From the NCBI RefSeq assembly GCF_013122565.1, contig NZ_CP053258.1: a stretch of 64,000 nt of DNA. One strand, given 5' to 3'. Of this stretch, positions 35,629-40,275 are shown piece by piece. The notes under the pieces were generated by a model, which was not told where the DNA came from, ran no database searches, and was given only the letters and a program-made list of their open reading frames with translations. The DNA comes from Escherichia coli. GTDB taxonomy: Bacteria; Pseudomonadota; Gammaproteobacteria; Enterobacterales; Enterobacteriaceae. Positions within the stretch are counted from its first letter, which is position 1; each line of letters starts with the position of its first letter. The translations under genes were made by a program, and so were the position numbers.

Positions 35629-35927
35629 GTAGAGATCCAATATTTAAGGGCACGGTTTTTGCAACCGTGTTCTTGTTTGGCCTTTCCTTATAGCCGGTCA
35701 GTGCATTCACCACCACAAGCAGATAATAACTTTATCTGTATTTCTTTATATGATGTGAGCATATTCAGGAAAAATGACCTTTCCTGAGGTACAGTTGCTC
35801 GCTCAAAACCTTTGATTACTGCGGATAAAGTCATCTACTATTGTTTAACACATTCACGCGCTGCATGTATGTTCGGAAAATGTGCACGCTAAGATAATTA
35901 AACAAAATTGTGGTTACAGAGGTATCA

Positions 35928-37181
35928 GTGAGTCACTGGGCTACATTCAAACAAACAGCAACAAATTTATGGGTGACCCTACGGCACGACATGCTCGCGC
36001 TGGCCGTCTTTTTAAATGGATTGCTTATTTTTAAAACAATCTATGGTATGTCGGTCAATTTGCTTGATATTTTCCATATTAAAGCATTTTCAGAGCTGGA
36101 TCTCTCCTTGCTGGCAAACGCCCCACTATTTATGCTCGGCGTATTTCTTGTCCTGAACTCCATTGGCTTACTGTTCCGGGCAAAGCTCGCATGGGCAATC
36201 AGTATCATTTTGTTGTTGATAGCGCTAATTTACACCCTGCATTTTTATCCGTGGCTGAAATTCAGTATTGGATTTTGCATTTTTACGCTGGTGTTTTTGC
36301 TGATACTGCGCAAAGACTTCTCCCACAGTAGCGCCGCAGCCGGGACAATTTTCGCATTTATTAGTTTCACGACGTTACTGTTTTACTCCACCTACGGTGC
36401 GCTTTATTTAAGCGAAGGTTTTAATCCGCGAATAGAAAGTTTGATGACCGCGTTCTATTTTTCAATAGAAACCATGTCAACCGTCGGCTATGGCGATATT
36501 GTCCCTGTTTCTGAGTCAGCACGATTGTTCACTATTTCGGTCATTATTTCCGGCATTACCGTTTTTGCCACCTCTATGACCTCAATTTTTGGTCCGCTTA
36601 TCCGCGGGGGATTCAACAAACTTGTAAAAGGAAACAATCATACAATGCATCGTAAAGATCATTTTATTGTTTGCGGGCATTCGATTCTCGCCATCAATAC
36701 GATTCTGCAACTGAATCAACGCGGACAAAACGTAACGGTTATCAGCAACTTGCCTGAAGATGATATCAAGCAACTTGAGCAACGCTTAGGCGATAACGCT
36801 GATGTTATCCCCGGTGACAGTAATGACAGTTCAGTATTAAAGAAAGCGGGAATCGATCGTTGCCGGGCCATTCTGGCGCTGAGTGATAACGATGCAGATA
36901 ACGCGTTTGTTGTACTCTCGGCAAAAGATATGAGCAGTGATGTTAAAACAGTTCTCGCCGTCAGTGATAGCAAAAACCTGAATAAGATTAAGATGGTACA
37001 TCCGGATATCATTCTCTCACCGCAACTGTTTGGCAGCGAAATTCTGGCGCGAGTTTTAAATGGTGAAGAGATTAATAATGATATGCTCGTTTCAATGTTG
37101 TTGAACTCCGGTCATGGCATTTTCAGCGATAACGATGAACAAGAAACGAAAGCTGACAGTAAAGAATCGGCGCAAAAATAG
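35928..37181 (+). CDS. kch: Six-TM K+ channel homologue with cytoplasmic RCK domain
   Basis: GTG start giving (M)SHWATFKQT... (417 aa); selectivity filter TVGYGD in TMSTVGYGDIVP; C-terminal Rossmann-type RCK domain (HFIVCGHS...). Confidence 0.9.
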   Translation: MSHWATFKQTATNLWVTLRHDMLALAVFLNGLLIFKTIYGMSVNLLDIFHIKAFSELDLSLLANAPLFMLGVFLVLNSIGLLFRAKLAWAISIILLLIALIYTLHFYPWLKFSIGFCIFTLVFLLILRKDFSHSSAAAGTIFAFISFTTLLFYSTYGALYLSEGFNPRIESLMTAFYFSIETMSTVGYGDIVPVSESARLFTISVIISGITVFATSMTSIFGPLIRGGFNKLVKGNNHTMHRKDHFIVCGHSILAINTILQLNQRGQNVTVISNLPEDDIKQLEQRLGDNADVIPGDSNDSSVLKKAGIDRCRAILALSDNDADNAFVVLSAKDMSSDVKTVLAVSDSKNLNKIKMVHPDIILSPQLFGSEILARVLNGEEINNDMLVSMLLNSGHGIFSDNDEQETKADSKESAQK

Positions 37182-37235
37182 AGTTTAAAGACGGAAGAGT
37201 AAACTTATTGGGCACCGCAATGGTGCCCAGTACAT

Positions 37236-37409
37236 TTAGATATTGTAGATCGCAAACAATAACGAGTTACGCTGTTTGTTTAGAATGCACTTCCTGATGC
37301 TGTGGATACGCATATTTCGGCGCGATTGCCCCTCAAGCCAACGCGATTTACGTCGGCTAGCCTGACGCTGCATGCGCCAGCGCCCCACTTCCGTTCTACT
37401 CCGCTTCAT
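37236..37409 (-). CDS. yciY: Small Arg-rich protein (57 aa)
   Basis: Internal Met of the 94-aa ORF gives MKRSRTEVGRWRMQRQASRRKSRWLEGQSRRNMRIHSIRK...; assignment from memory of a small gene between kch and cls. Confidence 0.5.
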   Translation of the reverse strand: MKRSRTEVGRWRMQRQASRRKSRWLEGQSRRNMRIHSIRKCILNKQRNSLLFAIYNI

Positions 37410-37551
37410 GTTAACTACTCTATGCAATAACAGAATGGTCATTATACCCCCGCCCCCGACGCTGACCAGTGCTTTTCCCGCGTTTTTATTTGCCAGATGA
37501 ATCCATATGCGTAAACTCATAACAATGCGCTTTCAAAAGGATTTCTAATCT

Positions 37552-39376
<1,825 letters not shown>

Positions 39377-39387
39377 CGCTTGCAATC

Positions 39388-39413
39388 GGATGTGACGCAG
39401 CTGCGTCACATCC
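39388..39413. terminator. Perfect 26-bp palindrome between convergent yciU and the channel ORF
   Basis: ggatgtgacgcag / ctgcgtcacatcc, exact reverse complements; starts 12 nt after the yciU stop and contains the TGA stop of the minus-strand channel ORF; no T-run on either side, so terminator function is inferred. Confidence 0.5.
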
Positions 39414-40275
39414 GCTCTTCATTTTCCACATCTACCTTTTCCCTCCCCAGTTCATTGCCACAAATACGACAATACTTCGCATCCTGTGCATGATTTTGGG
39501 TATTGCATTTAGGACAACAGAGAAGTTTTTTAGTCTGTTCAAGTTCGCTGGTGAGTTGCGCAGTAATAATCCCCGTCGGAATTGCAATGACTGAGTAGCC
39601 AATTAAGATTAATACTGAGGCCACCATCCTTCCTGCCTCTGTATGCGGCGTAATATCCCCATATCCAACGGTAGTCACAGTCACTATCGCCCAGTAAACC
39701 GCTGTACCCAACGAGTTAAATCCGTTTGATGCGCCTTCTATAGCGTACATTAACGCCCCAGCGACGATCATCACAATTGCAATAAATGCATAAAAAAGAA
39801 TCAACTGATGTCGGGCATTTTTTATCGCCCGCCATAAACTGTTTAAGGCAGGCATAAAGCGAAGCAGGCGCAAAATTCGCAACGCGCGAATAGCTCTCAT
39901 CGCTCGCCAGGCAAATAAATAAGTAAAACCAATTTCAGGCCATAGCCACATAACATACAGCGGCAAAATGGTGGTCAGATCGATAATTCCCCAAAAGCTA
40001 AAAACATAACTTACCGGATTCGGCCAGCTTAATATCCGCAGGAAATACTCGATGGTGAAAATTAAGGTAAAGAAGAGTTCCACCCAGACAAAGATATGCC
40101 ATTCGTCGTAGGTTAACTGAAATTGCGATCCAATACCGGATTCTATGAAAACAACGCCAACACTTAACAATGCGAGAAAACCAAACAGCGCCTCGCATCG
40201 TCTACCGGTTTTTGTATGCCGATCAAAAAGAAAATGATAAAACCGCTGACGATAGCCTGAAAGTTGTCCTGTCAC
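39406..40275 (-). CDS. Kv-type voltage-gated K+ channel homologue (6 TM, charged S4, TVGYGD filter) with C-terminal Cys4 zinc-ribbon tail
   Basis: 289 aa; GTG start 5 nt after SD GGGAGG; S4 segment RAMRAIRALRILRLLRF with Arg at every third position; acidic countercharges in S2 and S3; pore AIVTVTTVGYGDITP; tail CCPKC...CRIC; not remembered at this position in K-12. Confidence 0.8.
   Translation of the reverse strand: MTGQLSGYRQRFYHFLFDRHTKTGRRCEALFGFLALLSVGVVFIESGIGSQFQLTYDEWHIFVWVELFFTLIFTIEYFLRILSWPNPVSYVFSFWGIIDLTTILPLYVMWLWPEIGFTYLFAWRAMRAIRALRILRLLRFMPALNSLWRAIKNARHQLILFYAFIAIVMIVAGALMYAIEGASNGFNSLGTAVYWAIVTVTTVGYGDITPHTEAGRMVASVLILIGYSVIAIPTGIITAQLTSELEQTKKLLCCPKCNTQNHAQDAKYCRICGNELGREKVDVENEERM

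Follow-up and report, generated by a model that had tools for sequence, protein, structure and literature searches.

YciY, an arginine-rich small protein encoded divergently from the cardiolipin synthase gene of enteric bacteria, is under protein-level purifying selection

Introduction

The closest described system to the gene analyzed here is the YciY family itself (NF033701/PF26518), of which it is the Escherichia coli member, located at the same position between kch and cls and showing no difference from the family. Outside the family, comparison can be drawn with the arginine-rich-motif (ARM) RNA-binding peptides, such as lambda and P22 N, HIV-1 Rev and Tat and BIV Tat, which are Arg-rich helical segments with Trp, Gln and Asn residues. 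YciY is likewise a highly positive, predicted Arg-rich helix in which Trp, Gln and Asn stand among the arginines (RWRMxRQ, QSRRN) and which probably folds only on binding, but it has no homology to these peptides, it is a free-standing protein of 57 amino acids whereas an ARM is a motif within a larger protein, and its binding of RNA is putative. The small basic ribosome-associated proteins (Sra/bS22-type, bL34, bS21) offer a match in size (45-70 aa), isoelectric point (~12) and helicity, and YciY shares with them conservation on all sides, a pattern expected of proteins embedded in RNA, and a G+C-rich promoter discriminator as in translation-gene promoters. It has no sequence or profile similarity to these proteins, however, its rare codons suggest low expression, and we know of no report of YciY in ribosome structures.

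A further group of candidates for comparison comprises the small membrane regulators MgtS, AcrZ, PmrR and MgrB and the YmdB-ClsC pair. YciY is similarly small and encoded beside a membrane-enzyme gene, and the conservation of its linkage to cls would be in keeping with a dedicated modulator. MgtS, AcrZ, PmrR and MgrB, however, each consist of one transmembrane helix, while YciY lacks any hydrophobic segment, and YmdB is a macrodomain protein encoded in an operon with ClsC, unlike the divergent mini-gene yciY. In this work we analyze the identity, conservation, transcription and genomic context of yciY in a 64,000-nt stretch of E. coli DNA (hereafter, the window), following up a preliminary description that had singled out a highly basic 57-codon open reading frame (ORF) between kch and clsA.

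Materials and methods

Relatives of yciY were sampled by scanning one genome per species with tblastn, which returned a match in 318 species. The best 80 of these 318 loci, from approximately 25 genera, were fetched for comparison, so that decayed yciY copies are under-sampled.

Results and discussion

Identity and annotation

Translation of the window from 37409 to 37236 on the minus strand yields 57 codons plus a stop, encoding the peptide MKRSRTEVGRWRMQRQASRRKSRWLEGQSRRNMRIHSIRKCILNKQRNSLLFAIYNI. The yciY coding sequence (37236..37409, minus strand) opens with an ATG at 37409-37407, closes with a TAA stop and is flanked by kch (plus strand, ending at 37181) and cls/clsA (plus strand, starting at 37552), which reproduces the position and length originally noted for the ORF. 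The content of about 30% Arg/Lys given for the peptide agrees with the count of 17 Lys and Arg among 57 residues (29.8%; 14 Arg and 3 Lys), which with 2 Asp and Glu residues corresponds to a net charge of +15 and an isoelectric point of 12.0. The same 5 kb contains 49 ORFs that reach 30 aa or more, including many spurious frames of 50-107 aa inside real genes; length by itself does not raise the yciY ORF over chance, and conservation does. A 94-aa version of the ORF, with its ATG at 37520, was rejected: the upstream extension runs into stops at varying places in other genera, and its start would precede the gene’s own predicted promoter.

The yciY region was found in 5419 of 5426 complete E. 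coli genomes, and the RefSeq label lying under the match was ‘yciY: YciY family protein’ in all 15 E. coli records sampled, 14 of which span the whole query while the remaining one is split by an IS element and keeps yciY. All 57 residues of the window peptide are identical to those of WP_001309467.1, the RefSeq E. coli yciY product. The NCBIfam model NF033701 (‘yciY_fam’, of class ‘hypoth_equivalog’) scores the peptide at 109.8 bits against a cut-off of 30, with residues 1-55 aligned to positions 1-55 of the 56 in the profile, and PF26518 (YciY) is precomputed on all homologues, including the cluster P0001, which has 100% identity to the query over its full length. A Pfam-A scan returned no family for YciY, the Pfam copy used being probably older than the PF26518 model. 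The flagged ORF is almost certainly yciY, an already known and annotated gene that genuinely codes for a protein. Of the two options that the preliminary description had put forward, a genuine small protein or a by-product of a regulatory RNA, it is the first that annotation, published translation data and purifying selection at the codon level all endorse.

Evidence of translation

Ribosome profiling had been proposed as a check on the ORF, and published TetRP and Ribo-RET data, together with reporter fusions, show that yciY is translated. Its start site was detected by Nakahigashi et al. in 2016 via tetracycline-inhibited ribosome profiling (TetRP), with a chromosomal yciY-Venus fusion serving as positive control in both LB and minimal medium (PMC4909307). 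A PIRT-Seq study also detected yciY, through in-frame transposon reporter fusions and Ribo-RET, and lists it as absent from the MS proteome set (PMC12350097 Table S1). The latter absence counts little, because trypsin would leave very short peptides from YciY, where a basic residue occurs at every third position. The supplements of the Salmonella small-protein census make no mention of yciY.

Codon usage within the gene shows two local peculiarities. Rare Arg codons are kept at two sites, with AGA at codon 5 in 70 of 78 distinct sequences and AGA or AGG at codon 39 (37293-37295) in 71 of 78, while the other Arg codons vary freely. In addition, synonymous variation is lowered over the first 11 codons (codons 2-11, 37377-37406). 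Together, low early-codon variation and kept rare Arg codons may represent a translation-initiation constraint or a pause site.

Frame conservation and selection

All of the 80 fetched loci (the best 80 of 318) are open from the same ATG, over 57-59 codons. Frame-disrupting indels in relatives, the observation that the preliminary description had named as speaking against a real protein, were sought in 84 loci and none was found. Third codon positions vary in 53 of the 57 codons across 78 distinct sequences, and the four that do not vary all belong to ATG (Met1, Met13) or TGG (Trp11, Trp24) codons. The codon-position entropy is 1.08 bits at the third position, versus 0.37 at the first and 0.23 at the second. 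Mean pS reaches 0.62, which is near saturation, while mean pN is 0.11. The median dN/dS, computed with dS near saturation and on sequence pairs that are phylogenetically non-independent, is 0.083 overall, 0.048 over codons 1-40 and 0.18 over codons 41-57; the remaining five frames of the same DNA give values of 0.27-2.7. The proposed comparison of frame and nucleotide conservation among relatives thus falls on the side of the frame, which is kept in 80 of 80 loci with varying third positions and low dN/dS. Purifying selection on the 57-aa product of yciY is strong and acts at the protein level, most intensely in residues 1-40.

The alternative that the ORF is incidental, and that what matters is the transcript or the divergent transcription itself (a regulatory RNA, promoter interference or supercoiling coupling with cls), draws on the stability of the E. 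coli transcript, which exceeds that of its shuffles (z = -3.45), on the tight packing of the two promoters around a shared A/T-rich segment and on the reduced synonymous variation of codons 2-11. These observations are set against a strong asymmetry among codon positions and a dN/dS of 0.08 confined to the yciY frame, with synonymous sites otherwise near saturation, against conservative amino acid replacements and against translation shown experimentally. No Rfam family matches yciY, a permissive E-value yielding a chance CRISPR-DR35 inside kch only (E = 0.28), and RNAalifold on 28 whole transcripts identified no covarying structure within the ORF (covariation term -0.4). The codon statistics, the missing Rfam match and the lack of covariation therefore locate the constraint on the protein, so that the option of a regulatory RNA by-product is rejected, and we regard an incidental ORF as highly improbable.

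The YciY protein and its predicted structure

In the alignment of YciY sequences, the N-terminal two thirds are almost invariant, following the pattern M[KR]RSRxEVGRWRMxRQxxRRKxRWLExQSRRNMRI, whereas variation is greater toward the C-terminus, where an LLF patch is nevertheless retained. The substitutions are of a conservative kind (K/R, S/A, G/A/S). Glu7, Trp11, Gln16, Gln28 and Ser29 are invariant, and Trp24, Glu26 and Asn32 are present in at least 90% of sequences. Using the family alignment, AlphaFold2 predicts one continuous helix spanning residues 5-56 with a mean pLDDT of 90, although the single predicted helix of so charged a peptide may be disordered when alone. Conservation is equal (0.85-0.90) over all six 60-degree sectors of the helix and arginines occur on every side, which speaks against an interface with a membrane or protein on one side only and in favor of a partner that surrounds the helix, as would be expected of a helix enclosed by a polyanion. 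Helical-wheel analysis found no hydrophobic stretch, with a top 18-residue mean hydrophobicity of 0.04 and a hydrophobic moment (muH) of at most 0.53. With the low muH, the strongly negative mean hydrophobicity and the even conservation, neither a transmembrane nor an amphipathic membrane helix is supported, and YciY does not resemble small membrane proteins or type I toxins in this respect.

A profile search of the PDB detected no similarity to ribosomal or RNA-binding proteins, its sole match being mitochondrial uS14 with E = 0.22; homology to uS14 was discarded after hhalign against E. coli uS14 returned a probability of 0.2%. In the searchable literature we found no experiment on YciY function. 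The preliminary description had remarked on a resemblance to nucleic-acid-binding mini-proteins; the likeness is one of composition only, and the suggestion is plausible. We tentatively favor a reading in which YciY would be a free-standing, Arg-rich single alpha-helix that folds upon contact with a nucleic acid, a polyanionic partner that surrounds it. Its most likely target would be a structured RNA, either rRNA in the ribosome or a specific mRNA, and YciY would then act in the manner of ARM peptides and small basic ribosome-associated proteins, though without homology to them.

Promoters, leader and transcript

A consensus scan upstream of yciY predicts a -10 element TATAAT (37441..37446, minus strand) and a -35 element TGGTCA (37463..37468, minus strand), separated by a 16-nt spacer and together giving 10 of 12 matches. 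Every one of the 80 aligned intergenic regions (best 80 of 318) contains TATAAT, and the commonest form of the -35 across genera is CTGGTC. Alignment composition further delineates a G+C-rich discriminator after the -10, GACCAT in the window (37435..37440, minus strand); over 80 sequences these six nucleotides average 78% GC versus 36% in the rest of the leader, and it is their composition that is kept while their sequence varies. G+C-rich discriminators are typical of promoters inhibited by ppGpp/DksA, such as those of rRNA and ribosomal-protein genes. The discriminator hints at a stringent-type, growth-rate-linked (ppGpp/DksA) control of yciY like that of translation genes. The leader also carries a weak Shine-Dalgarno-like AGAG (37418..37421, minus strand), located 8 nt before the ATG and at least 90% conserved in the intergenic alignment.

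Back to back with this promoter lies the predicted cls (clsA) promoter (37490..37517, plus strand), with a -35 TTGCCA at 37490-37495 and a -10 TAAACT at 37512-37517, and both of its hexamers are also conserved across genera. The ORF had been described as antisense-adjacent to the cls promoter region; this wording is imprecise, as the gene is divergent and the predicted transcripts do not overlap. The only overlap of yciY with a neighboring transcript is at its 3' end, in the terminator common to kch. The inferred transcript is monocistronic and approximately 230 nt long (37205..37434, minus strand), with both ends approximate: the 5' end derives from the promoter prediction, and the 3' end was transferred from MG1655 Term-seq via a 29-nt spacing. 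These features show yciY to be a monocistronic gene with its own sigma-70-type promoter, ending at a hairpin terminator.

The small size of the ORF and its rare Arg codons at positions 5 and 39 might also suggest a leader peptide or upstream ORF controlling a downstream gene in cis. The terminator is located 7 nt past the stop codon, however, with a mapped 3' end there, and most genera have a convergent gene next to yciY, namely yciI in 46 of 86 loci and kch in Escherichia. With amino acid conservation over the full length far above what is usual for leader peptides, this explanation is barely credible.

The terminator hairpin

The hairpin GGGCACC-ATTGC-GGTGCCC follows the yciY stop at 37210..37228 and can be read on both strands; the near-identical hairpins of two E. 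coli loci (L002 and L077) have a computed dG of -13.4 kcal/mol. In MG1655, Term-seq maps the ‘primary’ 3' end of yciY 29 nt from a 3' end on the opposite strand, in the kch direction (PMC7815308 supplementary file 1), and by transfer to the window we infer that these ends sit ~5-6 nt beyond either side of the hairpin. The presence of Term-seq ends on both sides therefore identifies a bidirectional terminator and a monocistronic yciY mRNA of ~230 nt. The same dataset records a weak internal 3' end in yciY (MG1655 1308845, plus strand; score 937 vs 14252 for the primary end; PMC7815308), which falls ~57 nt into the ORF, at roughly window position 37352.

The terminator is common to kch in the window and to yciI in most other genera. 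Its seven core stem pairs are 92-100% identical among 79 distinct sequences from ~25 genera, with few compensatory or wobble changes, while the loop (4-8 nt) and both flanks vary freely in the same set. The pattern occurs once in the 64-kb window; in 513 kb of fetched loci it was counted 77 times, 76 of them at the yciY site. In the yciU terminator of the same genomes, by contrast, the stem sequence shifts freely through compensatory substitutions, and the distant YciY loci carry ordinary terminators unrelated to GGGCACC/GGTGCCC. Use of both strands may slow compensatory change, because a G-U intermediate in one strand corresponds to an A-C mismatch in the opposite one, but it falls short as a full explanation: in E. 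coli the yciU terminator is likewise flanked by convergent genes.

The terminator of yciI in the window, GGGCACGGTT-TTTGC-AACCGTGTTC at 35648-35672, opens with the same GGGCAC as the yciY hairpin and may be a remnant of an ancestral shared hairpin that was split at the insertion of kch. A Term-seq 3' end is recorded at the yciI terminator in MG1655 (PMC7815308).

A further alternative would be that YciY, as a mini-protein dedicated to nucleic-acid binding, has its specific target within the yciY locus itself, either the 3' hairpin or the cls/yciY region. In the first version, YciY would recognize GGGCACC/GGTGCCC in its own mRNA and in the convergent yciI or kch mRNA, resulting in autoregulation or in the control of bidirectional termination; in the second, it would act on the shared cls/yciY control region. 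The invariant 3' hairpin is the only candidate RNA element seen for YciY, and its assignment as a target is pure conjecture. We consider an own-locus target improbable; if true, YciY would represent a novel type of very small regulator with a link to cardiolipin synthase.

Gene neighborhood and distribution

Wherever the upstream flank is available (84 loci), yciY is oriented divergently from cls-yciU; this holds for 80 of 80 fetched loci and 4 of 4 distant members, and in the 80 Enterobacteriaceae loci the start-to-start distance between yciY and cls is held at 136-146 bp. In the four distant members, yciY is divergent from a gene for a 486-aa PLD-type cardiolipin synthase, followed by DUF440/yciU, and the downstream neighbors all differ: an MCP, yciI, an Rce1-like protein and an unknown protein. 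Among the 80 fetched loci (best 80 of 318), kch adjoins yciY in Escherichia only. A convergent yciI is adjacent in 46 of 86 loci (computed gap below 120 nt, with 33-66 nt between stops in nearly all), and in the remainder of this 86-locus set yciI is farther off or outside the fetched DNA, with other genes following the hairpin. Convergent yciI is the ancestral downstream neighbor of yciY.

The spot between the yciY hairpin and yciI (window 37182-37235) is a recurrent insertion site, holding kch in Escherichia and various unrelated genes in other genera. In E. coli strain TBE6, an IS5-like element of the ISKpn26 family occupies it and yciY is intact. In a 2025 preprint, the gap between kch and yciY serves as a neutral site for integration.

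Strict adjacency to cls-yciU sits outside what a general RNA-binding role explains, and it is the main ground for an alternative in which YciY is tied to cardiolipin synthesis, either modulating the activity or localization of ClsA or binding cardiolipin or phosphatidylglycerol at the membrane surface. Contact with the lipid would be made through Arg and Trp residues and the conserved C-terminal LLF patch, and the divergent promoter would keep yciY co-regulated with cls. The divergence from cls-yciU is kept in all 84 loci with an upstream flank while the downstream neighbor changes repeatedly, and promoter spacing is fixed in the Enterobacteriaceae loci. Arg/Trp-rich peptides are binders of anionic lipids, and YmdB, as an accessory protein of the cardiolipin synthase ClsC, provides a precedent. 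Against such a role, YciY has neither a transmembrane segment nor an amphipathic face, its conservation is equal on all helix faces, and no literature connects yciY and cls. Moreover, the adjacency could persist without a functional link, because both promoters lie in the short intergenic region, which offers rearrangement only a small target. We place a role in cardiolipin synthesis as unlikely, though it is the main rival of the nucleic-acid-binding reading that we tentatively favor.

The neighborhood also supplies a potential protein partner in YciU, a very acidic dsDNA mimic encoded in the cls-yciU operon across the shared promoter region, of which YciY (+15) might be the natural ligand or by which it might be buffered. 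The charges are complementary, with 30 Asp and Glu against 7 Lys and Arg in YciU, and yciU (DUF440/HI1450 family) lies downstream of cls in every locus with that flank. An AlphaFold2 prediction of a YciY-(GGGGS)6-YciU fusion on a paired 26-row alignment gave, however, a pTM of 0.50 and no confident docking, and the confidence of YciY per 10-residue block dropped from 89-97 to 54-89 in the fusion, an indirect test that is read from pTM and per-block confidence without a contact map or PAE. YciU homologues also extend well past the taxa with YciY, and we judge this pairing very improbable.

An exhaustive profile search of 1.84 billion representatives returned 38 matches at E <=0.001 and no tie to a larger family. 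Thirty-seven of them are short proteins aligned to the whole YciY profile or to a shortened stretch of it, and all of the 16 that were read are YciY-like; the remaining match, an 819-aa protein, covers profile positions 7-20 only (14 positions). Named members belong to Enterobacteriaceae and Rouxiella, with a distant match in Proteus. The YciY family is small and, within the searches made, found only in Enterobacterales. A phage search detected no YciY homologue, and in a plasmid search at least the three multi-megabase ‘plasmid’ records were mislabelled chromosomes. Scans with PHROGs and PADLOC returned nothing meaningful, the SspF hit (E = 0.0094, 12.4 bits) concerning one distant member only.

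The window carries a further gene of restricted distribution, which encodes a 289-aa ion transporter (K+ channel-like, TVGYGD) between yciU and oppF (39406-40275, minus strand). It is present in 3 of 5426 complete E. coli genomes, from pigeon and frog isolates, and several Citrobacter loci have a K+ channel-like sequence beyond cls/yciU that is 28-39% identical to part of Kch. Either the window therefore derives from an E. coli lineage that is unusual, or most E. coli have lost the gene.

Conclusion

The preliminary description picked out yciY correctly from sequence alone, but this is no discovery, as the gene is annotated, covered by curated family models and backed by published translation evidence. 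The remaining interest in yciY is modest and lies in its uncharacterised function. Among the uncharacterised small proteins of enteric bacteria, YciY, with a dN/dS of ~0.05 over 40 residues, is one of the more strongly constrained, and the combination of this constraint with unbroken adjacency to cls and an unusually invariant hairpin makes the locus relevant to studies of small proteins and of membrane-lipid regulation.
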